Source: Candidatus Cloacimonadales bacterium
GTDB lineage: Bacteria > Cloacimonadota > Cloacimonadia > Cloacimonadales > JAIOQZ01
Assembly: GCA_963674825.1 (NCBI GenBank)
Contig: OY771587.1
Span: 1,664,001 to 1,728,000 of the forward strand
Length of the DNA: 64,000 nt
Direction: 5' to 3'
The position numbers were made by a program, and so were the translations under genes. The notes beneath the pieces were generated by a model. It was not told the origin of the DNA and made no database searches. It saw nothing but the letters and a program-made list of their open reading frames with translations. Of the stretch, positions 10,794 through 40,628 are shown in pieces. Positions within the stretch are counted from its first letter, which is position 1; every line of letters begins with the position of its first letter.

Positions 10794-11148
10794 GCTAAAT
10801 GAATCTTGTTGTTTCGTCTCTGCGGATCCATGCTTTGTTGGTAATGCAAAGCAAGCAGCGTCAAATCATTAATGATCAGAAGATAGAAACGCTTTTTACA
10901 GAGTTGAAAGTTCACATAAGTCCGCAAGCAGAAGCGACAGTAAACATCCTTGTTTAGCGTCCTCTCTATCATATAATAACAATCCCTCTTCCAAGTTGAT
11001 AATGACGGTCGTTTCCCATGATTCTATTCTGATTATACGGCAAATACTTACACATCCCAAATTAGTCTGAGTTCTACATGGATTCTTGATCATATCGGAA
11101 CGAAATATGCATATTTTGGTAGGTAACTACTTCATAAGGGGTTCTGCG

Positions 11149-20100: not shown

Positions 20101-20964
20101 TATACCGTCGGCGAATCGGAACCTTCGAACACGATTGACGCAACGATTCTGCTTCCACCGCCGGGTAACGTCCTGGCTACGCCAGACAGCAGTGATGTTG
20201 TGGTGAGTTGGGATACGCCAGCGATGCGAAGCCTCGTTGGATTCCGCATTTATCGTGACGGAGCTGAGATCGTAACACTCGACAATCCAGCTCTGGTTGA
20301 ATACACTGATGCGAACCTGCCCAACGGCGACTATTCCTACACGGTTCAGTCCTTGTTCACATCTGATGTATCAGATCAAAGCACACCTGCAGAGTGTACG
20401 GTGGAAGTGCTCTGGGCTCCTGAAAATCTCGAGGCGGAACTCGGCGACAATGTATCGGTCAGCCTTACGTGGGATGCACATCCCATGGGTGTTACCATGA
20501 CAGCGTACAAGGTGTACCGTAATGATGTAGAGATAGCCCAGATTGACGACCCGGAAGTAACACACTATGATGATCTCGAGTTGGCTCCCGGGTACTATAC
20601 GTACACCGTAACGGCTCTTTACAACAGCGGAGAATCCGATCCTTCCAATGAAGTCGATATCGAAATCTACGCCACTGGTGACGAGCCTATTCCTCCAATG
20701 ACGACACAGCTCATTGGAAATGCGCCGAACCCGTTCAATCCGAGCACGACCATCATGTTCAGTGTCGCCAGTGATAGCGCTGTGAACTTGAGTGTGTTCA
20801 ACGTACGTGGGCAGAAGGTTGCCACTCTGGTGAACAACGAGGTTCTGTCTGCCGGTGAGCATCGTGTTGTTTGGAACGCCGGCAATGCTGGCAGCGGCGT
20901 GTATTTCGTACGCATGAGTACTCAGAAGAGCCAGTTCATCCACAAGATGTTGCTGGTTAAGTAG
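11149..20964 (+). CDS. Giant secreted protein: C10 (streptopain-like) prodomain + peptidase-like domain, adhesin/MAM-like domain, ~30 FN3-like repeats, C-terminal FlgD-Ig/Por-secretion-type tail
   Basis: Signal peptide MKKSMLSVF..; GFLLISADD..PILAY (C10 prodomain); GSHAVAMA.LMKYW, HAHLLDGY and FHFNWG (C10 core); repeated P-x2-L..W..P..GY.VYR.G..Y.D..L.NG.Y.Y.V.A.Y..GES; NAPNPFNPSTTI..FNVRGQKV..SGVYFVRM tail. Start chosen at ATG 11149 after AAGGGG. Confidence 0.9.
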   Translation: MKKSMLSVFLLFIFLTFLEAAPVLQSDADIVAENWSKHWSELRNSEINVRSSETIGTQLYLYHLDPAGFLLISADDNLEPILAYDFTTTASETKPDNFLSWLDVYQEECDYVRSHEIDDTRCNQLWSELLTDDLSRYQNTRNVSPMIWSQWGEGDDWNDACPDDPDGPGGNAYAGSHAVAMAMLMKYWNHPAQGEGQNSYYLPEYGAVEAVFDTTHYGWTHMPNSFSTNWTENLIFHCGVATFMDYSPTSSTTSINAVAQAMVDHFRYSSEMDLLARSDYDETVWEGMVRTELENGRPLLYQGEGTALHAHLLDGYQNTDFFHFNWGNEGQYNGYFQLSAITPSTANYTSNQKALFNVQPSLGPDTIDESFENDWNTFNWEFAGQSEWQIATDEHFYGIKSAKSGDINHNQTSEIFQSWNVLEDGPITFWCRVSSEDNGNNDYDRLEFWIDGVEADRWGGERDWEQMSYDITAGVHEFRWIYRKDGSLVSGQDCAWIDAIDFPDGATPLNAPQNFTASIVNDDSVLMTWEAPLIRNLLGYRIFRNNVEITTILNPNTLQFIDLNLPNGSYSYYARAVYDSGVSDPTITHVINIEVLYPPTALVASVSNFDDVLLAWNMPATQQARRTPINTRSLMGYRIYRDNTLIDSVNSQTTLQYADNDLPEGTHEYQVSAIYSSGYSELSNVAVAAIGVPWPPSELTAQVQNFNEVFLDWTAPPQTSETLTGYKIYRGLDLVHEMTDITSTSYTELDLPNGTHVYHVTAIYGEVESGPSNTAVATIEVPYPPQNLIADVAEDDVTLDWDAPATGSRNLTAYYVYRNNSPIATIWNTNVTSYFDPMLANGFYAYKVIAVYGDVYSEPSNIVNIEMDIPYPPSNLSAQIENLNDIVLNWDQPPVQGGLRSFLGYHVVRNGENHALVTDFNQLTWTDENVDNGVYEYFVYAEYNAGNSESTNDVEVTVEVLYPPQNPSYTIDDDDVVLTWDLPATGGGLTRDLLGYTIYRDDILIQTINDPAVLTWTDLNLANATYTYYLQATYTSGVSAPTDNLDVMVEVFYPASNLVGEIINEDDVALTWSPALNSGGLRMLQGYRVFRNDIAITDVTPADTTWLDSTLPNGDYIYYVKALYENGLSAETNHVPIHIEVMYPARQLTASVTGDDVNLAWLEPLTSGGLSRDLLGYRIYRDSDEIAVINDPAQVAFMDMNLDNGSYSYTVRAEYAVGLSEPSNTALASIEVLYPPTNLTAIVTNDTVSLNWNIPDNGPTRNLLGYTIIRNGSVLLQIADPATVGYEDTGLANGEYSYEVVADYSTGQSASEGPVTATVEVLYAPRNLGCSLENYYNAVLTWDPPLNQGGLTRVMNGYQVFRDSVLIADVTDVNYTDNALPDGSYDYTVKAVYTSGVSQASNTVNAIIEYPYAPSGLSAAVSQDTVSLVWTAPSSNTVLGYTIYRDGVSIADINDSAILNFNDTGLANGSYSYYVIARYNVDDSVPSNTVTATVEVLYPPQNLEASVMQDEVTLSWELPAVQGGLTRDLLGYKVYRDGNLIEEITGSLTYTDIDLANGAYDYEVSAVYTTGESQMSNLVTATVEVLYPPQNLTYAVTQDEVTLTWQLPAVQGGLTRDLLGYKVYRDGVLIEEVSGSLTYTDIDLANGAYDYEVSAVYTTGESQMSNLVTATVEVLYPPQNLEASVMQDEVTLTWQLPAVQGGLTRDLLGYKVYRDGVLIEEITGVLTYTDVNLANGAYDYEVSAVYTTGESQMSNLVTATVEVLYPPQNLVAEVAQDEVTLSWQLPAVQGGLTRDLLGYKVYRDGVEITETNDLNYLDIDLANGVYDYEVSAVYTTGESQMSNLVTATVEVLYPPQNLEASVMQDEVTLTWQLPAVQGGLTRDLLGYKVYRDGVEINETNDLNYLDIDLANGAYDYEVSAVYTTGESQMSNLVTATVEVLYPPQNLEASVMQDEVTLTWQLPAVQGGLTRDLLGYKVYRDGVLIEEITGSLTYTDIDLANGAYDYEVSAVYTTGESQMSNLVTATVEVLYPPQNLVAEVTQDEVTLSWQLPAVQGGLTRDLLGYKVYRDGVEINETNDLNYLDIDLANGAYDYEVSALYTNGESQMSNLVTATVEVLYPPQNLVAEVAQDEVTLTWQLPAVQGGLTRDLLGYKVYRNGILVEELIGVLTYIDVNLANGAYDYEVSAVYTTGESQMSNLVTATVEVLYPPRNLSAVVSNEVNAILSWDAPLTSGRSLNGYLVFRNGSLVATIGSPAQLTWTDYSLQNGGYDYSIQAFYTTGISPASNIAHVDIDYNPVLDAPSNLNATVVNGNDVELSWTGPESTQIGYKIYRDGAEIAELTDPTTVSFTDIGLPNGVYVYAVTAIYSEGESSPSNTAVADILITSPPQELVAQIQNDNEAALSWNPPVNSGYTGYVVYRNNVVIAVLEANTENYTDTGLANGDYDYYVKAQFNTNLSIASNTASVNVEILYPPTDLTADVVNSNDVTLTWAAPVTGRSLLGYNIYRDGVLIDEVTGALTYTDINLANGAYDYEVSALYTSGESQMSNLVTASIEVLYPPQNLEASVMQDEVTLTWQLPAVQGGLTRAFLGYNVYRDGAEIANINDPATLTYLDIDLANGAYDYEVSVLYTTGESQMSNLVTATVEVLYPPQNLTYAVMQDEVTLSWELPAVQGGLTRAFLGYKVYRDGAEIANINDPATLTYLDIDLANGAYDYEVSALYTTGESQMSNLVTATVEVLYPPTGLTATVTIDDVLLNWNIPQTQRRNRSLTGYQLYRNGSMIATIDNPAITTYTETDLVNGSYTYEVMATYSSGNSPLSEPAVAVIAVVTPPENPAFTILNGNDVDITWELPINQTTPNSYTIYRDGADVHTTENGTVLTWTDTDLENGDYNYWLTATYDAGESIATETMLVQIAVMNPPTGLSADVTLDMVELTWIEPANASGLLGFIVYRDSVEIAQINAPDVFVYDDFDLAAGDYQYFVTANYTVGESEPSNTIDATILLPPPGNVLATPDSSDVVVSWDTPAMRSLVGFRIYRDGAEIVTLDNPALVEYTDANLPNGDYSYTVQSLFTSDVSDQSTPAECTVEVLWAPENLEAELGDNVSVSLTWDAHPMGVTMTAYKVYRNDVEIAQIDDPEVTHYDDLELAPGYYTYTVTALYNSGESDPSNEVDIEIYATGDEPIPPMTTQLIGNAPNPFNPSTTIMFSVASDSAVNLSVFNVRGQKVATLVNNEVLSAGEHRVVWNAGNAGSGVYFVRMSTQKSQFIHKMLLVK
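15634..17760 (+). repeat. Eight near-identical tandem units of 264/267 bp encoding FN3 modules
   Basis: GTGCTTTA unit starts at 15634, 15901, 16168, 16435, 16699, 16963, 17230, 17494 and 17761. Confidence 0.95.
18811..19356 (+). repeat. Two further related 273-bp FN3 units (second sub-array)
   Basis: Unit starts at 18811, 19084 and 19357; they share PAVQGGLTR and GESQMSNLVTAT with the main array. Confidence 0.9.
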
Positions 20965-28403: not shown

Positions 28404-28734
28404 AAAATCCTAACTCATCAGTAATTGTTCGCATAACCCGATCAAGATCAAGCTTGATTTCATGATTACCGAATCGCAATATTCTGATATTCATACTGTT
28501 AATCGTCTCTGTCCGTACTTCATCGTATGTCTTTCCTTCAACCGTTTCATGTTGTTTGCCGTCGATCTCAATCACAAGCTTGTGGCTTGGAGCATAGAAA
28601 TCCGCGACATAAAATCCAATACTGAATTGCCGATAGAATTTGATCCCAAAGAACCTGTGATTTCGCAGAGCTTTCCAAATGATATCCTCTTCAGGAGTCT
28701 GATTCTTTCGAAGCAACCTGCGTCGCTCCTTCAT
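28402..28734 (-). CDS. DUF559 (Vsr-like PD-(D/E)XK) endonuclease domain protein
   Basis: RRLLRKNQTPEE..W, FYRQFSIG.YVADFY, LVIEIDGKQH, YDEVRT and ILRFGN. Confidence 0.9.
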   Translation of the reverse strand: MKERRRLLRKNQTPEEDIIWKALRNHRFFGIKFYRQFSIGFYVADFYAPSHKLVIEIDGKQHETVEGKTYDEVRTETINSMNIRILRFGNHEIKLDLDRVMRTITDELGF

Positions 28735-28758
28735 GTCGGTACGGTTGTAAATACGAAT

Positions 28759-28875
28759 AACTCCCCCTAGCCCCCTCTTTGCAATATAGAGGGGGGAAAG
28801 AAAGGTTGGTAGCCGTGCATGGCTGGTCTTTTAAGCCCCACTATTCAGACGAAGAGAGGGGTTTGGGGTGAGTTT
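28759..28875. repeat. Palindromic repeat doublet 2 (REPIN-like)
   Basis: AACTCCCCCTAGCCCCCTCTTTGCAATATAGAGGGGGG ... AAGAGAGGGGTTTGGGGTGAGTTT. Confidence 0.85.
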
Positions 28876-28885
28876 GAAATTCCAT

Positions 28886-29200
28886 TTAACTATTCCCGAA
28901 TACTGGACATAATACAGAACATAGTGGCGGTATGGCCTGAATTAAGAAGCCGACAAAGAGAAGGACTGTTCCCAAATTAATGCGTTTATTACATCTTCTG
29001 GTCGGTTCTCTGAACTTCTCCTCCCAACTTTTTGGAAACCAATATTCGGGTCCAATTTTATCCTAAGTCATATTTTCTTCAATTAGTTTGAATGATTGAA
29101 TTGCAGCCTCTACGAGAGAGGATTCCTTGTTTATTAGAAATACTGCTCCTATGGTGCTGACAATTAGTCCTAATGGGGTAACTAATGACTGATAGATCAT
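28886..29200 (-). pseudogene. Small two-TM membrane protein gene interrupted by one in-frame TAG (absent from the ORF track)
   Basis: GAGGAG RBS (29207-29212), 6 nt, then ATG: MIYQSLVTPLGLIVSTIGAVFLINKE..EENMT*DKIG..RINLGTVLLFVGFLIQAIPP..GNS*. The TAG is codon 46 (29063-29065). TTGACA lies upstream at 29250-29255. Confidence 0.7.
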
Positions 29201-29258
29201 ATTGAACTCCTCAAGATGAATTAACTGATTTAGTTATTGTGTGTCGATGTGTCAAGAG

Positions 29259-29457
29259 AAACTCCCCCTGCCCCCTCTTTGTGAAAAAAGAGGGGGGGCA
29301 GAGAGGATGATGAGCCATGCCGGTCGTGATATAGGATAGAGGAAGAGGGGATTCAGAGAGGATGGTGCTCGGATTTGGGTATTCAGGTGAAAGTTAGGGA
29401 CGTTGCGCAAAAAAAAGCCCCTCTCTTTTTGCAAAGAGAGGGGTATGGGGTGAGTTT
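29259..29457. repeat. Palindromic repeat doublet 3 (REPIN-like, longer spacer)
   Basis: AAACTCCCCCTGCCCCCTCTTTGTGAAAAAAGAGGGGGG ... CCCCTCTCTTTTTGCAAAGAGAGGGGTATGGGGTGAGTTT; ends 3 nt from the aconitase stop at 29461. Confidence 0.85.
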
Positions 29458-29460
29458 CCC

Positions 29461-31230
29461 CTAATTATTCTTGATCCAGTTCACGAGGCCCTTCATTCTG
29501 ATGACGTCCATCAGCTTTTCGGGGAGCGGCGCGAAACTGAGCTGTTTGTCTGCGATGGTGATCGAGCCTTTCTCGAAGTCGATGTCGACTTTGTCGCCGG
29601 GCTTGTAGGCATCCACAGCCTCGGGCAGCACGATGATCGGCAGGCCCTGATTGATCGCCGAGCGGAAGAAGATGCGCGCTACCGATTTCACGATAACCGC
29701 TTTCACACCCGCGTAGGCGAGTCCGACGGACGGATGCTCACGCGATGACCCGCAGCCGAAGTTTTCACCCGCGAGGATGATATCGCCCTGCTGCACGCGT
29801 TCGGCGAAGTTGTCGTCGAAGCCCTTGAAGAGGTGCTGCGCGACCTTGTCCGGTTCGGAGCTGTTGATGTTGTAGGTGAGGTTTCCGGCAAACATCTGGT
29901 CGGTGTTGAGGTTATCGACATCGGTGTAGTTCCAGGCTCCGTCGATGCGACGATTGTCGTCATCGGCAACCACGGTGGTAGCGCTCTGCTGCTGTTTGTA
30001 GGCGTACTGTTCGTCGCCTGCCACAGCGCGCGGATCGGTGATCTTTCCGTTGAGCGCGGAGACTGCCACGGTCACGGGCGAGCCGAGGTAGATACTGGCG
30101 GCTTTGTTTCCCATGCGGCCGAGGAAGTTGCGGTTCGCGGTGGAGATCACGTTGATGCCGTCAGCAGGAATGCCCTGACCGGTGCCCAGGCAGGGACCGC
30201 ATGAGGGCGACAGGATGTTGGCACCTGCATTGATAAGCGTCTCGATGGTACCGTCTTTCATCGCATCCAGGTAGATCGCCTTGGATGCGGGAATGACCAG
30301 CAGTTGGACGCTTGCCGGGATCTTCTTACCCTTGAGCACGGCTGCCGCGGCCTGAAGGTCGTCGAGCCGGCCATTGGTGCAGGTTCCTACCAACGCTTGC
30401 TGGATCGGCGTTCCCGCCACTTCCGCGATACCCTTTACGTTATCCACATGATGTGGGCATGCCAGGACCGGGAAGACCTTCGCCAGATCGATCTCCACTT
30501 CGCGGAAATAATCGGCTTCATCGTCTGCCCAGACGCCTTCCACCTTCTCACCCAGAAACGCCTCGAGTACTTCGTCCGCCGGGAATACGGCGTTCTTGGC
30601 ACCCATTTCGGAGGCGAGATTGGAGAGGGTCATTCGCTCGGAGATGGAGAGGGTCTTGACGCCCTCGCCGTGGTACTCGATGGACATGTAGTCGGCGCCA
30701 CTGGAGCCGTACATACCGATGATCCACAGCGCCAGATCCTTGGCGGTGACGTTTTCGGGAAGCTGGTTGTGCAACGTGATCTTGATCGATTCCGGTACGC
30801 GGAACCAGGTCTCGCCCTGTTTCCAGATACCGGCGGTTTCGGTGCGGTCGATACCGGCTGCCAGCGCGTTGAATGCGCCTGCGGTCGATGTGTGGCTATC
30901 GCTGCCCACGACGATGTTGCCAGGGCGTGCGTAGTAGCTCATGATCTGGTGACATATTCCGTCGCCGACGTCGTGGAAGCGCTTGATTCCCTCTTCGTTG
31001 ACGAAATCGCGGATGCGCTGGTAGTCGTTGGCGAGCTTGCTGTTTGTGGGAGGCGCGTTGTGATCGAGCACGATAAGCGGCTGATTCGGATCTGCCACGT
31101 GCTCACCGCCCATCTTGCGGAAGGTCTTTTCGATACTGGCTGTATTATCGTGGGAAAGCACGATATCCGGTTTCTTGAAGACGATTGCGCCTTTCTTTGC
31201 TCCGAGAACTTTCTCGATGAATGTTGCCAT
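29461..31230 (-). CDS. Aconitase-family dehydratase, fused large+small (LeuC-LeuD) subunits; homoaconitase (Lys4/LysF)-like
   Basis: SHDNT, LDH, GICHQIM, DSHT, GTCTNGR, CGPCLG and STANRNF.GRMG; swivel domain NLNTDQMF..LTY and NFGCGSSREH. Confidence 0.85.
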   Translation of the reverse strand: MATFIEKVLGAKKGAIVFKKPDIVLSHDNTASIEKTFRKMGGEHVADPNQPLIVLDHNAPPTNSKLANDYQRIRDFVNEEGIKRFHDVGDGICHQIMSYYARPGNIVVGSDSHTSTAGAFNALAAGIDRTETAGIWKQGETWFRVPESIKITLHNQLPENVTAKDLALWIIGMYGSSGADYMSIEYHGEGVKTLSISERMTLSNLASEMGAKNAVFPADEVLEAFLGEKVEGVWADDEADYFREVEIDLAKVFPVLACPHHVDNVKGIAEVAGTPIQQALVGTCTNGRLDDLQAAAAVLKGKKIPASVQLLVIPASKAIYLDAMKDGTIETLINAGANILSPSCGPCLGTGQGIPADGINVISTANRNFLGRMGNKAASIYLGSPVTVAVSALNGKITDPRAVAGDEQYAYKQQQSATTVVADDDNRRIDGAWNYTDVDNLNTDQMFAGNLTYNINSSEPDKVAQHLFKGFDDNFAERVQQGDIILAGENFGCGSSREHPSVGLAYAGVKAVIVKSVARIFFRSAINQGLPIIVLPEAVDAYKPGDKVDIDFEKGSITIADKQLSFAPLPEKLMDVIRMKGLVNWIKNN

Positions 31231-31260
31231 GATTTCCCCTTTTTTGTCGGGCGAGGGTCT

Positions 31261-33057
31261 CTAAAGCAGACCGCCCCGCTGATAGATTTCCATCTGAACA
31301 TCGTAGAACGGCGTGATCTGAACAGTTTTGCCATTCTCGAGGTTGGTAAGAATACCGGTTTCGAAATCGACCTTGATCATGTCGCGGTCTTTGAGCCCCA
31401 GCGCTTCGATCGAATCATATGTGAGTACCGGGAACGCGGCGTTGATGGCGTTGCGCTCGTAGATTGCGCCAAAGGAGTTTGCCAGCACGGCCTGCACGCC
31501 CAGCGACTTGAAGCAATCCACAGCCTGCTGACGGGAGCTTCCAGCGCCGAAATTCTTCGCTGTGATCACGATATCGCCCGGTTCGGCTTTCTTCGCGAAA
31601 TCTTCCCAGCCTTCGAGGTTATCGAAGGTGTACTGTCCCATCTGCGCGATGTCGGTGATGGTGAGGTAGCGATTGTGGTAGATCATATCGGTATCGATGT
31701 TGTCATGCATAATCAGCCATACCTTGCCTTCAACCACGGACGGTTTCGCTTCGGATGCTGCTTTCTCGACAACTTCGGTTTCTGCTTTCTCGCGTGCAGA
31801 GAAGAGTGCCGGCTTGTCTGGAATTGCGTCCGGGGTGGTCACGTATCCTGCGACTGCGGAAGCGGCTACCACGGCGGGAGATGCCAGATAGACCTTTCCC
31901 TTACCCTGCTTGCCTGCGAAGTTGCGGTTACCGGTGCTGATGGTCACTTCTCCCGGTCCGTTCTGGCCGATCTGCCCTGCCGCGCAACCAGCGCAACCAG
32001 CGTTTCCGATCAGCGCGCCAGCTTCTTTGAAGGTCTTCAGGAGGCCTTCATAGAGAGCCTGAGTCCAGATGTCGTTTGTGGCCGGGACGATCTTGAGAAC
32101 GACGCCCGGAGCCACTTTGCGGCCCTCGAGGATCTTCGCGGCGATGCGAAGGTCTTCGATACGTCCGTTGGTGCAGCTACCGATAAAGGCGGAATCGATC
32201 TTCTCCTGCTTGGCTTCGGAAACCATCACCGCGTCTTCCGGGTGTCCCGGGCGGGAAGTCATGGGTACAAACTTGGAGATATCGAGTGTCAGCTCATTGT
32301 CATACTTCGCGTCCGCGTCAGCAAAGACGGGCTCGAACGGCGTTTCGGTACGTTCTCTGAAGTAGTCGATGATTTCCTGGCTCGGCGGGAAGAGCACAAT
32401 AATTGCGCCCATCTCAGTGGCCATTGAGCTGATGGTGATACGCTCGTCGAGCGTCAGTTCATCAATTGCCTCGCCGTACAATTCGACGGAGTAACCCAGG
32501 AGGGTGTTTGCGCCGAAGTGAGCGAGCAGGTTGAGGACGATGTCTTTGGCGTCGATATTATCGGGGCGTTCGCCCGTGAAGTTGAGCTTGATCGATGCGG
32601 GAACCTTGAACCACACCTTTCCGTGTGCCCAGGCAGCCGCGATGTCGCGATCACCCATACCCTGGCCGAAAGCGCCGACAGCGCCGAGGATGTTGGCATG
32701 GGAGTCGGTGGAAACGACGGTTGAACCCGGGTAGGCGAGTCCTTTCTCAATCACGAGGTGGGTACCGATACCTGCGTCGATATCATAGACCTTGATATCA
32801 TTATCGCGTGCATAGAGGCGGCAATACTGCTGATTGGCGGCGTATTTCTGATCAGAACCGGTCGGGTTGCAGTCGAAGGTGAAGAAGGTCTTCTTGGGAT
32901 CATCGACGGTGAGGCCGGCGCTTTCCAGATTCTTCACCACGTTAGCGCCACCGAAGTCGCGCGCGGCACGTACGTCGATCAGGATATCGACGATATCATT
33001 CGGCTTAACCACGTCTTTATCGGAGTGGTTTGCGAGAATCTTTTCTATTATGGTCAT
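31261..33057 (-). CDS. Second aconitase-family dehydratase, fused LeuC-LeuD, with altered active-site motifs
   Basis: DSH, GSCTNGR, GCAGC, STGNRNF.GKQG, NIDTDMI and NFGAGSSRQQA. Confidence 0.85.
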   Translation of the reverse strand: MTIIEKILANHSDKDVVKPNDIVDILIDVRAARDFGGANVVKNLESAGLTVDDPKKTFFTFDCNPTGSDQKYAANQQYCRLYARDNDIKVYDIDAGIGTHLVIEKGLAYPGSTVVSTDSHANILGAVGAFGQGMGDRDIAAAWAHGKVWFKVPASIKLNFTGERPDNIDAKDIVLNLLAHFGANTLLGYSVELYGEAIDELTLDERITISSMATEMGAIIVLFPPSQEIIDYFRERTETPFEPVFADADAKYDNELTLDISKFVPMTSRPGHPEDAVMVSEAKQEKIDSAFIGSCTNGRIEDLRIAAKILEGRKVAPGVVLKIVPATNDIWTQALYEGLLKTFKEAGALIGNAGCAGCAAGQIGQNGPGEVTISTGNRNFAGKQGKGKVYLASPAVVAASAVAGYVTTPDAIPDKPALFSAREKAETEVVEKAASEAKPSVVEGKVWLIMHDNIDTDMIYHNRYLTITDIAQMGQYTFDNLEGWEDFAKKAEPGDIVITAKNFGAGSSRQQAVDCFKSLGVQAVLANSFGAIYERNAINAAFPVLTYDSIEALGLKDRDMIKVDFETGILTNLENGKTVQITPFYDVQMEIYQRGGLL

Positions 33058-33082
33058 TGTAACTCCTTATGCAACTTGCGTT

Positions 33083-33154
33083 TCATCCTGAGCGGAGTAA
33101 AAGGATACCGCAAGTTAATTCATCCAGAGTGCCCTTCGACTCCGCTCAGGGTGA
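33083..33154. repeat. REP-like inverted doublet (CCTGAGCGGAGT family)
   Basis: TCATCCTGAGCGGAGTAAAAGG (33083-33104) matches the reverse complement of CCTTCGACTCCGCTCAGGGTGA (33133-33154) at 19 of 22 positions. Confidence 0.75.
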
Positions 33155-33174
33155 CACTCTGAGTACAGACGCAA

Positions 33175-33744
33175 TTATTCTCCGATCAACAGACCTTTGG
33201 TCATCATGACCATGGGGTCGAATGTCGCGAAATCGGCCTGATGGATAAGAACCGTTTCGATGCGTTGCGGACGTCCATCACCTTCCTTGGCGTGATTGGC
33301 GATGATATTGACGATCTCTTCGGGAAGTCCTACGCGGTCAGCGAGGATAGCGCCTGAAATCGGATGACGTGTGCACTTGCCGTTATAGCTCTTGCGATAG
33401 GTGCCATCGACGCATTCGATCTCTTTGAGCTTGCCGACATCGTGCAGCAGTCCGCCAGCGAGCAGGAAATCCATGTTCAGGGTATAGGGCATCTTGCGGT
33501 AGTTCTCTGTAATGGCCTTTGCGAGCCCTACAGCGCCTTCAGTGACCGCCATGGTATGTTCGATAAAGTTGATTCCTTTCGTCTCTGTGAGCAGCGTAAA
33601 CGGGATTTTCTCGATATCTTCGGGTTTCTCCCAGCCGCCTTCCTTCGCTGCGATGACAAAGCACTCAACGGTCTTCTCGCGAATCTCTTCGCTTTCGATC
33701 TTTGAGAGCACTTTGTCGAACACTCTTCTGAAATATTGTTCCAT
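33175..33744 (-). CDS. HD/HDIG-domain metal-dependent phosphohydrolase
   Basis: IEHT..V, GGLLHDVGK, HPISG, IIANH and HQAD; start at ATG 33744 after AAGGAG. Confidence 0.88.
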   Translation of the reverse strand: MEQYFRRVFDKVLSKIESEEIREKTVECFVIAAKEGGWEKPEDIEKIPFTLLTETKGINFIEHTMAVTEGAVGLAKAITENYRKMPYTLNMDFLLAGGLLHDVGKLKEIECVDGTYRKSYNGKCTRHPISGAILADRVGLPEEIVNIIANHAKEGDGRPQRIETVLIHQADFATFDPMVMMTKGLLIGE

Positions 33745-33816
33745 GGTATGTTCTCCTTCTATTGTTCTCACCCCATTGATTTTCAGCAATTGGAAGCTTG
33801 TCTCCATATGCACAGA

Positions 33817-33834
33817 GGGACTCTTCCGAGTCCC
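33817..33834 (-). terminator. Short GC hairpin after the dehydrogenase gene
   Basis: GGGACTC-GGAA-GAGTCCC on the minus strand (GNRA-type loop); no strong U-tract. Confidence 0.4.
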
Positions 33835-33857
33835 CCCTATGTGCTGTTATCAAAGAA

Positions 33858-35048
33858 CTATTTCAGTTTCTCGATGATGGCGTCGGTAACCTGCATGGTC
33901 GATGCGGCGCCGCGCTCTACGACTTCGGGCGTACCCTTCATCTTGAGCATATCGTATGTGCGAACCTTGCCCTCTTCCACTACTGCTGCCACAGCATTGC
34001 GAATGCGGGTGGCTTTTTCGGTTTCGCCGATGTGGTCGAGCATCATACATGCGGAAAGGACCATCGCGATCGGATTGACGATCGGGGTCTTGTATTCAGC
34101 GTATTTAGGAGCAGAACCATGGGTAGGTTCGAAAACCGCCACTTCCTTGCCGATGTTTGCGCTGCAAGCGAAGCCGAGTCCGCCAACCAGACCTGCGAAA
34201 CCGTCGGACACGATGTCGCCGAACATGTTTCCGGCTACGATTACACCGTAATCTTCCGGGTTCTTGGTCAGCCACATCATCTGAGCGTCGATGTTGGTGT
34301 TCCAGAGGGCGATATGCGGATATTCCTTCTGAATTTCTTTGCTGAGCGCGAGCATCATGCCGGATGTTTCACGTATTACATTCGGCTTTTCGCAGAGGGT
34401 AACCGACTTGTAACCAAATTTATCGGCGTGCTCGAAAGCAGCGCGGATGATGCGTTCGGAGTATTTCTTTGTGAAAATACGAGTGGAGACAGCCAGCTCT
34501 TCGCGTGGGCTCCAGCCGAAGTTCTTGCTGAATTTCGGGTGGGTCATCAGTGCGTCATAGACCTGGTCGCCGGGGTTGGTCCATTCTACGCCGCCGTAAA
34601 GGCCTTCGGTGTTCTGGCGGAAGATCGCCACATCTACTTCAGGCTCTTCGATGGTGTCGTTGGCACCCTTGCGGATGAAGTTGAGCGGATTACCCTTGAA
34701 GGTCTTGCACGGACGCAGACAGATATCCAGGTCGAAGTGCTGACGAAGACCGACGATGGGGCTATAATAGACGTAACCCTTATCCTGAAGCTCGGGAGCG
34801 AGTTCCTTTGCTGCATCTGATTTGGGCTTTGACGTGATTGCGCCGAAAAGGCTGATCTTGTGCTCTTTGAGCAGATCGATTGTACGCTGCGGAAGGGGAT
34901 TTCCTTCCTTGCACCAGAATTCCCAGCCGATGTCGGCGTGGACGTACGACGCGCGGAAATCAGCCGCTTCAAGTACGCGGATTGCTTCCGGAAGTACGAT
35001 TTTGCCGATGCCGTCGCCAGGCATCAGTACGATTGTCATATTCGCCAT
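33858..35048 (-). CDS. Isocitrate/isopropylmalate/homoisocitrate dehydrogenase family protein
   Basis: PGDGIG, LFGAITS, SPIVGLRQ, RQNTEGLY, NMFGDIVSD and FEPTHGSAP. The GAxTS and SPIVxLR motifs recall homoisocitrate dehydrogenases. Confidence 0.9.
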   Translation of the reverse strand: MANMTIVLMPGDGIGKIVLPEAIRVLEAADFRASYVHADIGWEFWCKEGNPLPQRTIDLLKEHKISLFGAITSKPKSDAAKELAPELQDKGYVYYSPIVGLRQHFDLDICLRPCKTFKGNPLNFIRKGANDTIEEPEVDVAIFRQNTEGLYGGVEWTNPGDQVYDALMTHPKFSKNFGWSPREELAVSTRIFTKKYSERIIRAAFEHADKFGYKSVTLCEKPNVIRETSGMMLALSKEIQKEYPHIALWNTNIDAQMMWLTKNPEDYGVIVAGNMFGDIVSDGFAGLVGGLGFACSANIGKEVAVFEPTHGSAPKYAEYKTPIVNPIAMVLSACMMLDHIGETEKATRIRNAVAAVVEEGKVRTYDMLKMKGTPEVVERGAASTMQVTDAIIEKLK

Positions 35049-35095
35049 AGTTTCCTCCGAAGATTCTATATTTTTAGTGCTTTGAGTTCATAATC

Positions 35096-35133
35096 ACCCT
35101 CACCCGTATACGGTAGAGGGCCGGGGTGAGGGT
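35096..35133. repeat. REP-like palindrome (CCCTCACCCCGGCCCTCT family)
   Basis: ACCCTCACCC ... AGAGGGCCGGGGTGAGGGT directly after the citF stop; shares the GGGGTGAG core with doublets 1-3. Confidence 0.6.
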
Positions 35134-35135
35134 CC

Positions 35136-36686
35136 CTACTTCACTTCTCTGACAACGTCGATCACGGTTCCATCGACCCACTTGATCGCCGCGACAACCT
35201 TCTGCCCGAGCGTTGGCATTTCGGCCTTACCGCAGATCGCCTCGGCTTCTTCCTTCAGTTCCTCAATGGTCTTGATGGGAAGGCCGGAATCCTTGGTCGC
35301 TTCGATGAGGTCTTTTCGGCGTGGATTGATCGCGATACCGCGTTCGGTAACGATGATATCGATCAGTTCGCCCGGACCGCAGATGGTGGTAACCTCGTCA
35401 CGAATGACGGGGATACGATCGCGGAAAAGCGGGATGGGAAGGATCACGTTCTTGCTGAAGAGGCAGTTCTGCCAACCACCTATACCATGCAGCAGATAGC
35501 CGTCGGAATGGGTCACGACGTTGGCGTTGAAATTAACGTCAACTTCGGTTGCGCCCAGGATGACGATATCCACCATGCTGGCGAAGTTGCCTTTGCCGTG
35601 GTAGTTATAGCTGGTGAATGGGCTTGTCCAGACGTGCGTCGGGTTCTCGCGCATGGAGCGGACGCCTTCGAGATCGAAAGTCTGGCCGTCCAGAATGTGC
35701 GTGATGAGCCCTTCTTCGAGCATCTGAACCAGGTATTTGTTGCTGCCGCCGCGTGCGAATCCACCTTTCATACCTTTCCGCTTGAGGATCTCGGAGAAGT
35801 AGATACCGATAGAAAGGGCGGTTCCACCAGCGCCAGCCTGGAAGCTGAAGCCGTCTTTGATCAGTCCGGCTGCTTCACAGAACTTCGCTGTCAGCTCGGC
35901 GATGTAGAGACGGTCAGGGCTACGGGTGATCTGGGTGGTGCCGGAGACGATCTTCTCCGGGATACCGACCTTGTCCATCTCAACTACGAAATCTACGTAG
36001 TTGCCCTGGATCTGCCACGGTGTGCAGGGGAAGGGAACGAGGTTGTCGGTAACCACTACAACGCGATCCGCATACTGTGAATCGGCCAGTGCGAATCCCA
36101 GCAGACCGCATGCCGAAGGGCCGGTAACAGCGTTTGCGTTACCGAAAAAATCAGCCGTCGGCGCAGCGATAAAAGCGATGTCGATATGAACTTCGCCGTC
36201 CTGAACTGCTTGGTAGCGTCCACCGTGAGAACGAAGAACGCCGGTTCCGCGCATCTTGCCTTGCGAGGTGAACTTACCCAACGGGCCGTTCATGCTGCCT
36301 TCGATGTGGTGAATGGTGCCGTCCTCCAGGTAGGGAAGTAGCTCACTGTGGCAGGGGAACGATGCGGACGGAAACCATACGAGGTCCTTGATGCCCAGTT
36401 CGTGTGCTGCGTGGAAGACCTGATTGGCCACCAGGTCGCCGTTGCGGAAGTGATGATGAGTGGAGATGGTCATGCCGTCTTTGATGCCTGACTTGACCAG
36501 CGCTTCTTTGATATCCTTCACGCGTTTGTCGCCATCTGCGGGGTAGTCCATGCAGGTAGCGATGGGTGGTGCGGCTTTGCGTCCGGTGGGGCGATACTTG
36601 CCTACGCCCATGAAAGGAACAACCGGCTTGCCGTTTATCTCTTCCGGAATCATCCTTCCGACTGCGTTTTTGACTTCTTTACTCAT
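35136..36686 (-). CDS. citF: Citrate lyase alpha subunit / citrate CoA-transferase-like (CitF)
   Basis: DGMTISTHHHFRNGD, RSHGGR, SFQAGAGG, ILDGQTFD, LGATEVD.NFN.NV and TERGIAINP; ATG 36686 overlaps the upstream stop. Confidence 0.9.
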   Translation of the reverse strand: MSKEVKNAVGRMIPEEINGKPVVPFMGVGKYRPTGRKAAPPIATCMDYPADGDKRVKDIKEALVKSGIKDGMTISTHHHFRNGDLVANQVFHAAHELGIKDLVWFPSASFPCHSELLPYLEDGTIHHIEGSMNGPLGKFTSQGKMRGTGVLRSHGGRYQAVQDGEVHIDIAFIAAPTADFFGNANAVTGPSACGLLGFALADSQYADRVVVVTDNLVPFPCTPWQIQGNYVDFVVEMDKVGIPEKIVSGTTQITRSPDRLYIAELTAKFCEAAGLIKDGFSFQAGAGGTALSIGIYFSEILKRKGMKGGFARGGSNKYLVQMLEEGLITHILDGQTFDLEGVRSMRENPTHVWTSPFTSYNYHGKGNFASMVDIVILGATEVDVNFNANVVTHSDGYLLHGIGGWQNCLFSKNVILPIPLFRDRIPVIRDEVTTICGPGELIDIIVTERGIAINPRRKDLIEATKDSGLPIKTIEELKEEAEAICGKAEMPTLGQKVVAAIKWVDGTVIDVVREVK

Positions 36687-37890
36687 GGTCCCTCCAGTCC
36701 TCCGCGAGGAGGCCCGATTTGATCGCCAGCGTGATAGTTTTCTGAGCACGTTTGACGACCGGCGGATCGATCATCTTGGAACCGAGCGCGACAACGCCGA
36801 GTCCCTTCTCTTCCGCTTCGTGGAACGCCTTCACGATTCGTTTTGCTTTCGCGATTTCTTTCTCTTCTGGTGCGTAAGCAGCGTTGATCACCGGGATCTG
36901 GCGCGGATGGATACAGCCCATGCCTTCGAATCCGAGCGACTTGCCCTCGGTAGCGAAGTGGTTCAGGCCATCCATGTTATCGATATCGGAATAGACAGAA
37001 TCGATCGCCTGGATACCGGCTGCCCGGGCTGCGTTGACCAGCATGCAGCGTGCGAAGTAGGTCTCTTTTCCCTCTTCGGTGCGTTGCGTGCCGAGGTCGG
37101 CCGTGTAGTCTTCCAGTCCGATCGCCAGCGCGACCACCTGCGGTGACGCGGATGCGATCTGGTAAGCATTCATCACACCCTTCGCCGATTCGATGATGGG
37201 CATGATCCAGATATTCGATGCTTTTTCTTTATCCTTCTGGACGTCGTGAATCTTCGCGACCACATCATGGATCTGGCTCGCTTCCTCGCATTTGGGAAGC
37301 AGAATCAGGTTCACGCCGTGGGGTACGATGAGCTCGATGTCTTCCAACCCCATGGGAAGCTGGTTGATGCGCACCATACGCTCTGCGCCGTAGAAATCAA
37401 CATTACGCAGCGAATTGCGCACGACGAAACGTGCTTCGTATTTCTTGGGGGGCGCAACTGAATCTTCCAGGTCCAGGATGATGCCATCGGGCTGATGGAT
37501 TCCAGCGTTGATCGCCAGCTTGGGGGTGTTACCCGGAAGATAGAGACGAGCGCGGCGGAATTGATCCCGGCGGGTGAGGTTAGTATTTTGCGGAAGTGCG
37601 TCGAGCAGGAATTCTTCCTTCGTGTCGATGCATTTCTTGATTGCGGCTTCGATACGGGCGCTGATTACGTAATCGAGTGCGCCAGCGTCATCGATTTTGA
37701 GGTAGGCATTTTCGATCTTGTAGAAGTCCAGAATATCTTCTGTGAGCTTCTGGATCGATTTGCCAAAGAGCGCTTTGACCTTGCTTTCGATAACGATTTC
37801 CCGGCCACCGTTGTCTCTGATTTCGAGCGTAACGCGGCAGTCTGAGCGTACATCGTCACCGAAGTTTCCGATAGTGCATTGGCTTTGCAT
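36679..37890 (-). CDS. citE: Fusion of citrate lyase acyl-carrier protein (CitD) and citryl-ACP/CoA lyase beta subunit (CitE)
   Basis: N-terminal ~90 aa: RSDCRV..ESKV..FG..I..DAGALDYVISARIEAA (CitD). Then RRARLYLPGN, DLEDSV, VRINQ, IIESA, GLEDY, GMGCIHPRQI and KMIDPPV (CitE). Confidence 0.9.
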   Translation of the reverse strand: MQSQCTIGNFGDDVRSDCRVTLEIRDNGGREIVIESKVKALFGKSIQKLTEDILDFYKIENAYLKIDDAGALDYVISARIEAAIKKCIDTKEEFLLDALPQNTNLTRRDQFRRARLYLPGNTPKLAINAGIHQPDGIILDLEDSVAPPKKYEARFVVRNSLRNVDFYGAERMVRINQLPMGLEDIELIVPHGVNLILLPKCEEASQIHDVVAKIHDVQKDKEKASNIWIMPIIESAKGVMNAYQIASASPQVVALAIGLEDYTADLGTQRTEEGKETYFARCMLVNAARAAGIQAIDSVYSDIDNMDGLNHFATEGKSLGFEGMGCIHPRQIPVINAAYAPEEKEIAKAKRIVKAFHEAEEKGLGVVALGSKMIDPPVVKRAQKTITLAIKSGLLAEDWRDHE

Positions 37891-37900
37891 GCGGAACTCC

Positions 37901-39196
37901 TTATTTCAGGAACTCGCCGATGTATTTGTATTCGGGTTCCAGTTTACCTTGATGTATGATGATCGATTTTTTTATCGGGTATGGCAGGTCTGATTCCTCG
38001 ATGGGCTTGGACCAATCGTTGTCCAGCATCGCCTTCATGAAAGGAAGCAGTGCTCTCGTGAAGCCATCGGAAGCCTCCATAGAGAATTCGCAGGGAAGGT
38101 TATCTACTGCGCAGATGGTAACACCGTTACCCATGTAGCCGTCTTCGAATTTGTCTTCGACAGCGTTGTACGTGTAGACAGGGTTATCTGGATAAGTGGC
38201 TTTCACGGTTGCTTCGATGGAACCTTCGATGTCGCAGGTGATATCGCCGATCGCGATCATCTTACCGCCACTCTTCTGGAGCTCGGCGATATCGGCCTTG
38301 GTCAGGAACACGGGGTATCCCGGAGCCCAGTAGATGGCGTTCATGTAGATCGAGCAATATGGCAGGTACGGCTTCATCTTCGATTCGTACTGGGGACCGT
38401 TCTTGAAATAGTCCATCAGATCGAATGAGCCGTCATCCTTGCGCTGCACCAAGTGTTTTTCCTTGAACACCGCGAGGTAGATACGGTCATTTTTGTAAGC
38501 TGTATCGAGCATGCCAAGATCATCAGGATCGATCTCTTCGATCGGCATTTCCGAGATGATTTCACGGCAGCCGGAGGCTACATGACCGTAACCGAGTTGG
38601 AAGATAACCAGAGGACCGATCTCTTTGGGAAGCCCGTCGCGCTTGATCTCTTCGCCAAGCTTACGAAGGTGCTCGACGGCATCGGACACACGCTCGTATT
38701 CGAATGCGCGTTTGACTTCAGACAGCGGGGTCTTCAGTCCGTAATGCTCTTCCAGGCGTCTACCGACAGCCCACAGCGTATCGACCATTCCGGCGTTACC
38801 GGCGAACTTGCCAAAGAATACCAGACGACGATTCTGCTCGTCGACGATGCGCTCGTAGTCCAGGATCGAGCATTTTGCGTCCATGAATTCGCGCAGCATG
38901 GGCATGTTGTAGTCCTGTCCCTTAATGGTGTGCGAGAAGAACATATGCGGTTTTCCGGGAACCATATCCGGGATCTTGATCTCTTTCACGCCAATGATCA
39001 GGTCACACAGGGAAAGATCATCGGAGATAGTTGCGCCAACGGCTTGATATTGATTGTCTTTGTAAATACGTAGTTCGGAGGGTTGCACAACGACTTGATA
39101 TCCTTGATCGATCAGCTCTTTGACTGCCTGCGGATTCAGGGGTACTCGTGCTTCCCATTGATTCTTGGTTTCTCTAAGTATTCCAAGTTTTTTCAT
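37901..39196 (-). CDS. Lysine-ketoglutarate reductase / lysine-forming saccharopine dehydrogenase-like (AlaDH/PNT fold)
   Basis: GILRETKNQWEARVPL.P, GVKE, FFSHTIKGQ.YNM, DYERI, FGKFAG.AG, DITCD..GSIE and AVDNLPCE, as in the LKR domain of eukaryotic AASS. Confidence 0.88.
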   Translation of the reverse strand: MKKLGILRETKNQWEARVPLNPQAVKELIDQGYQVVVQPSELRIYKDNQYQAVGATISDDLSLCDLIIGVKEIKIPDMVPGKPHMFFSHTIKGQDYNMPMLREFMDAKCSILDYERIVDEQNRRLVFFGKFAGNAGMVDTLWAVGRRLEEHYGLKTPLSEVKRAFEYERVSDAVEHLRKLGEEIKRDGLPKEIGPLVIFQLGYGHVASGCREIISEMPIEEIDPDDLGMLDTAYKNDRIYLAVFKEKHLVQRKDDGSFDLMDYFKNGPQYESKMKPYLPYCSIYMNAIYWAPGYPVFLTKADIAELQKSGGKMIAIGDITCDIEGSIEATVKATYPDNPVYTYNAVEDKFEDGYMGNGVTICAVDNLPCEFSMEASDGFTRALLPFMKAMLDNDWSKPIEESDLPYPIKKSIIIHQGKLEPEYKYIGEFLK

Positions 39197-39242
39197 GTAC
39201 AGACTCCACTCACTTTGTTACGAATTTCACCCCATGGACAAC

Positions 39243-39275
39243 GTGCATCGCATGGCGAAAAACCACGCGATGCAC
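39243..39275. repeat. Intergenic hairpin between the two saccharopine genes
   Basis: GTGCATCGC-A-TGG ... CCA-C-GCGATGCAC. Confidence 0.6.
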
Positions 39276-39305
39276 CCTGTTCAGAAACTATATTGAGCGA
39301 ATCGA

Positions 39306-40628
39306 TCAATCATAAAATCGTTCGATCACCTTGATATCCAGATTGCCGAGTTCTTCCAGAACTGGAAGGTAGACTTCCGGCATTACGGGCATATGGACGC
39401 CCGGGACGAAGAACTTTCCTTCGAGAATGTAGCGCACCGCGATTGCTGCCGGAAGGGAGACTGTGCGGGACATGGAGCTGTCGCCGTTCTCGATACCGGT
39501 ATCGATCATCGTAGAGGTAATGCGCTGTTCTTTATCGCCAAATGCGGCCACGAATTCGTGGTGGAGCACCAGTAGATCGCGTTCGCCCTTATCGTAAGAC
39601 ATCTTTTCAAGCATCAGCGCGGTGAGAACATCAACCGCCGAGCCTTCTTTAATCGGCATCGGAGTATCGCCGATGATTCCGAGCCATTCGAATTTCTTCA
39701 GGATAACGCTGTTTTCGAGGATACCGTAGCGCTTGACGATTTCTTCTTTGAGGCATGCGTCTTTCGATGCGCCGAGGACTTTCTCGAGCACGAATTCCTG
39801 AACGGTGCCGCTCAGGTTGTTATAATAATCGTCATCGTTGAAGAATCCCATCTGCGAAAGGATGAACCATGTGTCGCAATGACTGACGTTACGCAGGGTA
39901 CCACGGTACATGGTGCGGACGTCTTTGAGACTGTAGAGGTCAATATAAGGAAGGGAATCGCGATTGACATACGCTTCGAACGTGCCGGCTCCCTCGACAT
40001 CGAGGAACCAGTAGTGGCTGAAGAGGTTCTTGCCGGGGACTTCGATAATCTTGCCGTCTTTCATATAACGTGCATTATTACCGGCAGCCTTGAGAACGCC
40101 CTTGGGCGCCCAGCTGAATTTGTATCCCCAGGGATTGGTGTTGTCTTGGTGTGCGGGAAGTCCGCCACAGTAGGACATGAAGGATACGATCTTGCCGCCC
40201 TTTTCTTCCACTTCGTGGAAAATCTTCATCGCGGACATGTGGTCGATGCCGGGATCCACGCCGATTTCGTTCAGGATCATAATGCCGGCTTCTTTTGCAG
40301 CGGCATCCAGTTCGCGCATCTGAGGGCTGATATACGAAGTAGTCACCATATTGGTCTTGAGTTCGATACACTTCTTCGCAACTTCCACGTGCAGTGTGGC
40401 AGGCAGAAGACTCACTACCAGATCACTTTCCTTGATCAGATCTGCCATCTGTTCCATGTCATTCGCAACAAATTGAATTGCAGTAGCCTTCTCGTGTGGT
40501 GCAGCCAGTTTTTCCGCTTTAGAAAGGGTTCTGCTTGCGATCACGACTTCAAAACCGTTTTTCGCGAGGTAATCGACCATAGGCTTTACGACCAGACCCG
40601 CTCCAAAAATGGTTACTTTCTTTGCCAT
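39306..40628 (-). CDS. Saccharopine dehydrogenase (glutamate-forming; Lys9/AASS-SDH-like)
   Basis: FGAGLV, NEIGVDPGIDHMSA, SYCGGLP, NPWGYKFSW.P, RGTLR and MSRTV..PAAI; start at ATG 40628 after GGAGG. Confidence 0.92.
   Translation of the reverse strand: MAKKVTIFGAGLVVKPMVDYLAKNGFEVVIASRTLSKAEKLAAPHEKATAIQFVANDMEQMADLIKESDLVVSLLPATLHVEVAKKCIELKTNMVTTSYISPQMRELDAAAKEAGIMILNEIGVDPGIDHMSAMKIFHEVEEKGGKIVSFMSYCGGLPAHQDNTNPWGYKFSWAPKGVLKAAGNNARYMKDGKIIEVPGKNLFSHYWFLDVEGAGTFEAYVNRDSLPYIDLYSLKDVRTMYRGTLRNVSHCDTWFILSQMGFFNDDDYYNNLSGTVQEFVLEKVLGASKDACLKEEIVKRYGILENSVILKKFEWLGIIGDTPMPIKEGSAVDVLTALMLEKMSYDKGERDLLVLHHEFVAAFGDKEQRITSTMIDTGIENGDSSMSRTVSLPAAIAVRYILEGKFFVPGVHMPVMPEVYLPVLEELGNLDIKVIERFYD

Follow-up and report, generated by a model that had tools for sequence, protein, structure and literature searches.

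A saccharopine and citrate-lyase-like operon of Cloacimonadota that probably encodes an undescribed anaerobic route of lysine catabolism

The window considered here is a stretch of 64,000 nucleotides from a Candidatus Cloacimonadales bacterium (contig OY771587.1, positions 1,664,001 to 1,728,000), whose genome is a single contig of 3.89 Mb with an estimated completeness of 99.57%. From window position 40628 down to 29461, eight intact, co-directional open reading frames lie on the minus strand in the order saccharopine dehydrogenase (SDH), lysine-ketoglutarate reductase (LKR), a CitD-CitE fusion (CitD-E), CitF, a dehydrogenase of the Iso_dh family (DH), an HD-domain protein, and two aconitase-family proteins (Acn1 and Acn2). 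The intergenic gaps along the operon are 109, 10, -8, 87, 113, 117, and 30 bases, and ribosome sites are clear at most of the starts; SDH begins at 40628, behind a GGAGGA site. A first-pass annotation made from the letters alone had described these eight genes, and both its coordinates and its family assignments are borne out, with its end coordinate falling on the SDH start. Because the identical eight-gene order is found in loci of other genera (L158, L160-L163), the clustering is not a matter of chance. The operon probably encodes an undescribed anaerobic lysine catabolic pathway, built from known enzyme families with shifted substrates.

The first two genes provide the link to lysine. SDH (39306..40628, 440 aa; PF03435 and PF16653) is of the glutamate-forming Lys9/AASS-SDH type, and a PDB search places it nearest to the yeast (2axq, E 3e-91) and Magnaporthe-type Lys9 enzymes, with AASS next. 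LKR (37901..39196, 431 aa) is of the AASS-LKR type. It had been called "LKR/Lys1-like", a label of which only the first half survives: the match to the LKR domain of human AASS extends over residues 4-427 (E 6e-78), while that to yeast Lys1 covers residues 8-138 only (E 1e-14).

CitD-E (36679..37890, 403 aa; PF06857 and PF03328) joins a carrier-like domain to an acyl-CoA C-C lyase and is the proposed homocitryl-CoA lyase, while CitF (35136..36686, 516 aa; PF04223), a CoA-transferase subunit, is the proposed acetyl-CoA:homocitrate CoA-transferase. Identity to the E. coli subunits is 38% for CitF, 40% for CitE, and 36% for the CitD-like domain; on the citE model TIGR01588, CitD-E scores 287 bits against a cut-off of 443 and thus fails at the equivalog level. 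At the position of the CitD cofactor serine (Ser14 in E. coli), CitD-E has Arg15, which is the first residue of an R-S-D-C motif (residues 15-18; 37837..37848). This alignment is gap-free between a conserved Gly and a conserved Asp. Across 37 distinct full-length fusions (38 rows, in which the window protein is duplicated and was counted once), the column is occupied by Arg 34 times, by Lys twice, by Gln once, and never by Ser; all five canonical CitD proteins keep the cofactor serine. The neighbouring Ser is common to four canonical CitDs, so it is not evidently a shifted attachment site. (The Cys three residues past the lost serine, at 37837-37839, is kept in 36 of the 37 fusions and is Val or Ile in canonical CitD; a thiol role for this residue is possible.)

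The genes that would equip a classical citrate lyase were also sought. A hidden Markov model search of this genome yielded neither citC nor citG, and a tblastn search with the E. coli protein only yielded no citX. Among 51 genomes that carry this DH (50 genomes from DH loci and this genome), exactly four have citG. These four keep the CitF of the module (CitD-E, CitF, DH, the HD protein, and two hydratases) beside a second CitF, about 40% identical, that sits in a canonical citD-E-F-G-C cluster. The module CitFs form one clade (58 rows) with a support of 99 in the Shimodaira-Hasegawa-like approximate likelihood ratio test (SH-aLRT), separate from five canonical citG-linked CitFs, in what is a quick tree, where E. 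coli CitF sits on a long branch. Judged by these features, the module lyase is not a classical citrate lyase, and we infer that it uses free acetyl-CoA in place of the covalent cofactor. CitE and CitF are a textbook pair, and in isolation both are able to use CoA esters.

An ATP-citrate-lyase-like pair stands in place of CitDEF in two Krumholzibacteriota-like genomes (L071:15460-19004 and L075:15454-18980), in which CitF was not found. Here DH, HD, Acn1, and HacAB are followed by a succinyl-CoA-synthetase-beta-like gene and a fusion of an alpha-like domain with a citryl-CoA lyase, which is the layout of ATP-citrate lyase. ATP-citrate lyases are known as cleaving enzymes. (Directly upstream of DH, both loci have a 2-oxoacid:ferredoxin oxidoreductase pair.) Other variations concern CitF itself. 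Tandem duplicated module-type CitFs, which belong to different subclades, occur in four genomes (L010, L129, L130, L158), and lone CitF homologues, 34-36% identical to E. coli CitF and forming their own clade, are found at L116:6658-8268 and L117:6904-8508 with neither citD nor citE nearby.

DH (33858..35048, 396 aa; PF00180) is a beta-decarboxylating dehydrogenase and is the proposed homoisocitrate dehydrogenase (HICDH), which would act as a 2-oxoadipate reductive carboxylase. Its best NCBIfam models are those for HICDH (AksF, 277 bits; AksF2, 276 bits), with all 16 models below cut-off; on the leuB model it reaches 181 against a cut-off of 353. The top PDB match is a putative NAD-dependent isocitrate dehydrogenase (NAD-IDH), followed by Thermus HICDH. 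A motif S-P-I-V-x-[LM]-R (S96, R102) is invariant in 210 of 210 relatives. The corresponding motif of E. coli IDH is S-L-N-V-A-L-R, in which the Asn binds isocitrate; DH keeps the Ser, but Ile replaces the Asn in all 210. Thermus HICDH has an Arg, which confers isocitrate activity, at the position of the motif Val, and the fungal HICDHs presumably match the DH residues at this motif.

Acn1 (31261..33057, 598 aa) and Acn2 (29461..31230, 589 aa) are fused large and small subunits that are 31% identical to one another. On hacA_fam they score 395.9 and 468, respectively, against 385.7, and on the leuC model 185-212 against a cut-off of 560. Acn1, for which the homocitrate/homoaconitate step is proposed, has three Fe-S cysteines; the small-subunit part of Acn2, for which the homoaconitate/homoisocitrate step is proposed, is nearest to the methanogen homoaconitase 2pkp (E 1e-32). 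The clusters keep two hydratase slots, one filled by Acn1 or by a PrpD-like protein (the latter in 8 loci, and never both together) and the other by Acn2, by a HacAB in two parts, or by an enzyme of one chain. Seven of the single-chain aconitases found in PrpD-type clusters were tested, and all 7 are over the cut-off of TIGR00139, the equivalog model for fungal-type homoaconitase (842-882 against 530 bits). According to the accessible part of Fazius et al. (PMC3556520), fungal homoaconitases interconvert homoaconitate and homoisocitrate only, homocitrate needs a second enzyme, and PrpD performs a syn-elimination that aconitases cannot. Taken together, the fungal-type homoaconitase in related clusters, the DH that lacks the Asn, and the two hydratase slots that are kept point to C7 "homo" acids as the substrates of the module. 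Between DH and Acn1 lies the gene for the HD-domain protein (33175..33744, 189 aa; PF01966), which is within 10 kb of DH in 57 of 80 loci. An AlphaFold model searched with Foldseek returns a YhaM-like HD fold only (best E 1.3e-4, TM 0.53), and the HD-motif His is absent from several relatives.

The 80 loci come from a scan of GTDB contigs that found at least 598 DH relatives; genes were counted within 10 kb of DH, contig ends permitting. DH belongs to a tight subfamily, with its best 120 matches 78-96% identical and distributed over Calditrichota, Chloroflexota, Aminicenantes, Acidobacteriota, and others. CitF is within range in 23 of the loci, CitD-E in 22, LKR in 5, and SDH in 4, and 45 of the 51 DH genomes have a CitF match. 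The module core thus recurs in several other phyla, where its genes are widely linked or co-present, but its tight linkage to LKR and SDH is mostly a feature of Cloacimonadota. Within that phylum the eight-gene operon is kept, and LKR lies within about 8 kb of DH in 15 of 20 other module genomes (families f1 and f4), so that the saccharopine genes are linked to the cit and aconitase genes beyond this genome. LKR is present in 41 of the 51 DH genomes. At a Bacteroidota locus (L056), LKR and SDH, with ALDH7 included, are tightly linked to the module; the loci with ALDH7 inside the cluster are one of Carboxylicivirga and one of Anaerolineales. The earlier idea that a CitDEF-like complex acts on homocitrate, and is tied to the saccharopine genes, finds indirect support in these comparisons. 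As a separate observation, LKR-SDH has a gene for ornithine aminotransferase next to it in family f13 as well as in two further genomes (L148, L150, L153, L118, L131).

The first-pass annotation had left the direction open, offering biosynthesis or its reverse. Insight into this question comes from 121 evenly drawn Cloacimonadota genomes, in which DH was counted at 54% identity or more (six further genomes with distant DH only, 37-40%, were left out of the module count). DH and CitF occur in the identical 33 genomes, 32 of which have LKR. kamD, which marks the classical fermentation of lysine, is present in 82 (these positive genomes also validate the kamD model); a single genome (G141) has both, and 7 have neither, although these counts include related genomes and are not independent. 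The module and kamD are thus nearly exclusive. Since both states occur within family f4, the switch happened more than once. Among the 50 genomes from DH loci, which represent other phyla as well as relatives, kamD is found in 2. ALDH7, which in this genome lies outside the window, is over cut-off (NF050084, 792.7 against 730) and matches ALDH7 structures in PDB with E about 1e-168; of the 121 phylum genomes, 18 have it over cut-off, and all 18 are module genomes. The exclusion of kamD, the restriction of ALDH7 to module genomes, and the ATP-citrate-lyase-like pair that replaces CitDEF favour the catabolic direction; the biosynthetic one fares poorly given ALDH7 and the LysA, Lys2, and LysX results discussed below.

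Several further observations were made around these genes. In one genomic region (G000:C1:2625808-2633460; L132, L135), ALDH7 is one gene away from an aldehyde:ferredoxin oxidoreductase (AOR) that is split in two. A NuoF-like gene separates its halves, and its C-terminal part follows a NuoG/hydrogenase-like Fe-S domain in a fusion. This AOR may be an electron-bifurcating enzyme and is a candidate for the conversion of the semialdehyde. One related locus seemed to have an ALDH7 fusion, which was rejected as a read-through of unknown bases into another gene. The sole phylum genome with LKR and SDH and without the module (G104; L182:1644-9885) has, after LKR-SDH, genes for a 535-aa protein of unknown kind, a CoA-transferase with two subunits, an aminotransferase of class III, and a thiolase, possibly a different downstream route.

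We infer the pathway as follows, and this applies to all of its substrates, its direction, its use of free CoA, its transaminase, and its stereochemistry. The operon would encode an oxygen-independent route in which LKR condenses lysine with 2-oxoglutarate, using NAD(P)H, to give saccharopine (step 1), and SDH releases aminoadipate semialdehyde and glutamate (step 2). ALDH7, encoded elsewhere in the genome, would then form 2-aminoadipate (step 3), from which a putative transaminase would produce 2-oxoadipate and a further glutamate (step 4); the genome has class I/II aminotransferase candidates, none of which is assigned to 2-aminoadipate by a model. DH would carry out the reductive carboxylation of 2-oxoadipate to homoisocitrate (step 5), and the two hydratases would convert this through homoaconitate to homocitrate (steps 6 and 7). 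In the final step, CitF would transfer CoA from acetyl-CoA to homocitrate, with the release of acetate (step 8a), and CitE would cleave homocitryl-CoA to 2-oxoglutarate and acetyl-CoA (step 8b). Since free acetyl-CoA would cycle between CitF and CitE, no covalent cofactor would be needed. In our judgement it is probable that the operon converts lysine, 2-oxoglutarate, CO2, and H2O to two glutamates and acetate, in a redox-neutral manner, by way of a free-CoA homocitrate lyase. The elements of this net equation balance, and its four redox steps cancel at the level of NAD(P)H. Energy would come from the later fermentation of glutamate. Homologues of two glutamate dehydrogenases, succinyl-CoA synthetase, and acetate kinase are present in the genome.

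The proposed route also has a stereochemical consequence. Homocitrate synthase makes (R)-homocitrate. The CitE family is S-specific by the name of its model, and by analogy the substrate of the lyase would be (S)-homocitrate. A syn-acting PrpD fits (S)-homocitrate, and an anti-acting Acn1 does so only with further isomerisation. A broader proposal seems to us evenly poised between right and wrong: that lysine is fermented anaerobically by a widespread and hitherto undescribed route, with fixation of CO2 into glutamate and a new enzyme, a carrier-less homocitrate lyase whose vestigial CitD holds free CoA through the Arg. This route would pass through (S)-homocitrate, the enantiomer opposite to the biosynthetic one, which would account for the second hydratase or the PrpD-like enzyme being dedicated to it. 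Roughly one in four of the Cloacimonadota sampled, along with many Bacteroidota, Chloroflexota, and Aminicenantes of sediments, would rely on it as their chief way of using lysine.

A number of points weigh against a lysine-degrading homocitrate lyase pathway. With NAD(P)H as the reductant, reductive carboxylation runs uphill. CitF is over the cut-off of the model for the citrate lyase alpha subunit (TIGR01584, 506.6 against 501.45), and for homo-acids none of the window proteins passes an equivalog that is specific for the substrate, which makes the substrate case indirect. The window aconitase- and Iso_dh-family genes are the sole members of those families in the genome, so a side activity on citrate is possible. 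Three genomes have both the module and kamD (G141, G025, G026), and the exclusion between the two follows families and thus reflects a few events rather than 121. Among cultured carriers, Labilibaculum euxinus A4 and Labilibaculum sp. K2S combine DH and the module CitF with kamD. ALDH7 is below cut-off or absent in 15 module genomes out of 33 (family f4 accounts for 13), leaving step 3 unexplained in these, and it was not found in 28 of the 50 genomes from DH loci. LKR was not found in 10 of the 51 DH genomes, two of which are single-chromosome records; outside Cloacimonadota it lies within 10 kb of DH in one locus only (5 of 80 overall), and in family f13 the module genes are dispersed. This genome lacks LysA, so a biosynthetic need exists. 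Finally, Caldithrix abyssi has a DH 84% identical to that of the window, and in the accessible part of Kublanov et al. 2017 (PMC5317091) a locus with LysW and homocitrate synthase (Hcs) is described for this organism; the DH subfamily may consequently run forwards there.

Fungal-type lysine biosynthesis, in which CitD-E/CitF would stand in for homocitrate synthase and join an acetyl unit to 2-oxoglutarate, AOR could reduce aminoadipate, and SDH and then LKR would make lysine, is an unlikely explanation. It draws on the Lys9-like SDH, on the presence of an AOR-type gene cluster, on the homocitrate synthase that was not found in the genome, and on LysA, which is over cut-off neither here nor in the 33 phylum module genomes. 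However, LysA is over cut-off in just 8 of the 121 genomes, only one of them a kamD genome; its lack in 81 of 82 kamD genomes marks the absence as phylum-wide, and 17 of the 51 DH genomes do have LysA. Sub-threshold LysA matches of kamD genomes (5 loci) were rejected, since this common decarboxylase is 24% identical to a LysA and sits in an ATP-grasp/urea-transporter cluster. (That cluster, which is conserved in Cloacimonadota and Carboxylicivirga and was seen at L176:6062-10675 and in L177-L180, combines an ATP-grasp gene, a fold-type III pyridoxal-phosphate decarboxylase-like gene, and a gene that fuses a urea transporter with an M23 peptidase.) The DapB of this genome, which has a DapF-like neighbour, is consistent with the supply of cell-wall diaminopimelate only. 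Neither a Lys2-type reductase nor LysX is over cut-off in any of five family genomes, this one included, and argB and argC homologues were not found in this genome (LysW itself was not searched for). ALDH7 acts in the opposite direction, and with a lyase/transferase pair a condensation would lack the driving force of thioester hydrolysis.

A broad chain-shortening module for 2-oxoacids, fed with 2-oxoadipate from lysine, pipecolate, or tryptophan, or with 2-oxobutyrate via methylmalate/citramalate, and possibly two-way depending on the host, also seems improbable. The genomes in which LKR or ALDH7 was not found, the tandem CitFs of some genomes, the PrpD-like partners, and the scoring of both hydratases in the broad isopropylmalate isomerase/homoaconitase subfamily would all suit such a module, but in this genome it shares one operon with LKR and SDH, and both single-chromosome genomes without LKR carry ALDH7, which still points to 2-oxoadipate.

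The least probable reading is ordinary C6 chemistry, in which 2-oxoglutarate would be converted through isocitrate and citrate to acetate and oxaloacetate by a free-CoA citrate lyase (as in a reverse tricarboxylic acid (TCA) cycle or glutamate fermentation) with LKR and SDH supplying only glutamate: the CitF score, the top PDB match of DH, the lack of another aconitase or IDH, the succinyl-CoA synthetase and fumarase homologues, and the listing of the genes as citrate lyase in the accessible part of Williams et al. (PMC8542988) agree with it, but the module CitF is kept beside a canonical citDEF-G-C cluster in four genomes, a fungal-type homoaconitase fills the hydratase slot elsewhere, DH has lost the Asn that binds isocitrate, there would be no need for two hydratases, and the kamD exclusion and the nesting of ALDH7 are left unexplained.

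The catabolic route through homocitrate shares parts with several known systems. With citrate (pro-3S)-lyase (CitDEF with CitC, CitG, and CitX, as in E. coli and Klebsiella) it has the CitF-type transferase, the CitE-type lyase, and the CitD-like domain in common, but the operon differs in its CitD-CitE fusion, its Arg for the cofactor serine, its separate CitF clade, the citC, citG, and citX that were not found, and its linkage to homoaconitase-type, HICDH-type, and saccharopine genes. The upper alpha-aminoadipate pathway (fungal Lys20/21, Aco2, Lys4, and Lys12; Thermus Hcs, LysTU, and Hicdh) likewise has two hydratases and a beta-decarboxylating dehydrogenase, and its fungal-type homoaconitase occurs in related clusters; here a lyase takes the place of homocitrate synthase, the reverse direction is favoured, and, apart from LysW, which was not searched for, no LysX or Lys2 activation step was found. 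LKR, SDH, and ALDH7 are nearest to the enzymes of saccharopine lysine catabolism in animals, plants, and some bacteria. That route continues through 2-oxoadipate dehydrogenase and glutaryl-CoA dehydrogenase, releasing CO2, whereas the exit proposed here would add CO2. In this genome sucA/sucB (2-oxoadipate dehydrogenase type) gave no match (ferredoxin-type 2-oxoacid oxidoreductases were not searched for), and the sole acyl-CoA dehydrogenase scores 304 on the glutaryl-CoA dehydrogenase model against a cut-off of 470.

The citrate-cleaving arm of the reverse TCA cycle (IDH, aconitase, and citrate lyase or ATP-citrate lyase) offers the same sequence of reductive carboxylation, isomerisation, and retro-Claisen cleavage, and both lyase types occur with the module, but the module would be one carbon longer, lysine-fed, and outside any carbon-fixing cycle. 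Clostridial-type lysine fermentation (kamA, kamDE) probably has the same role, anaerobic lysine use, but has no enzymes in common with the module, which contains no radical SAM or B12 step. The operon also differs from the LeuABCD system of leucine biosynthesis: LeuA was not found, and the window proteins fail the leuB and leuC equivalogs. Neither citrate synthase nor monomeric IDH was found in this genome, and its single HMGL-like match is a 654-aa carboxylase-type frame beside a carboxyltransferase-like gene.

Some of these genes are already on record. In the accessible part of Williams et al. 2021 (PMC8542988), CitF, CitD+CitE, LKR, SDH, and a fused LeuC+LeuD of Antarctic Cloacimonadota appear under separate pathways, the Ca. 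Stygibacter locus tags are near-consecutive, and the LeuA row is empty; the reverse-TCA cluster discussed there is another one, with ATP citrate lyase and AcnA. Within that part the CitD+CitE fusion is thus recorded but the pathway is not. The accessible part of Aklujkar et al. 2010 (PMC2996986) concerns a canonical citrate lyase cluster. A description of this lysine route was not found in the literature, of which coverage was thin for subscription journals.

Other features of the window lie outside these eight genes. Seventeen bases past the last stop codon the operon closes with a strong intrinsic-terminator-like hairpin and T-run (29408..29443, minus strand; hairpin 29443-29418) with 11 pairs, 6 of them G-C; in a scan, terminator-like and promoter-like counts across the whole region are at chance level. 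The downstream interval 28700-29460 contains similar C-rich/G-rich inverted repeats of the type CCCCTCT...AGAGGGG, one of which is the terminator-like hairpin, and these may be a small repeat family. On the plus strand, 11086-20964 encodes a 3292-aa secreted protein with a Spi inhibitor, a C10 peptidase, many fibronectin III repeats, and a C-terminal sorting domain.

Models of lysine breakdown in the absence of oxygen usually assume the clostridial kam route. If the proposal is correct, there would be a second anaerobic route, which dispenses with radical and B12 chemistry, takes up CO2, and yields glutamate and acetate, in the peptide fermenters of sediments and anoxic waters. A homocitrate lyase without a covalent carrier would be a new activity, and 2-oxoacid elongation chemistry would be seen to run backwards beyond the reverse TCA cycle. 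Annotation would be mended as well: these genes are now read one by one as citrate lyase, isocitrate/isopropylmalate dehydrogenase, and LeuCD, labels that, if the proposal holds, can give a false impression that the cell uses citrate, makes leucine, or has steps of the reverse TCA cycle.

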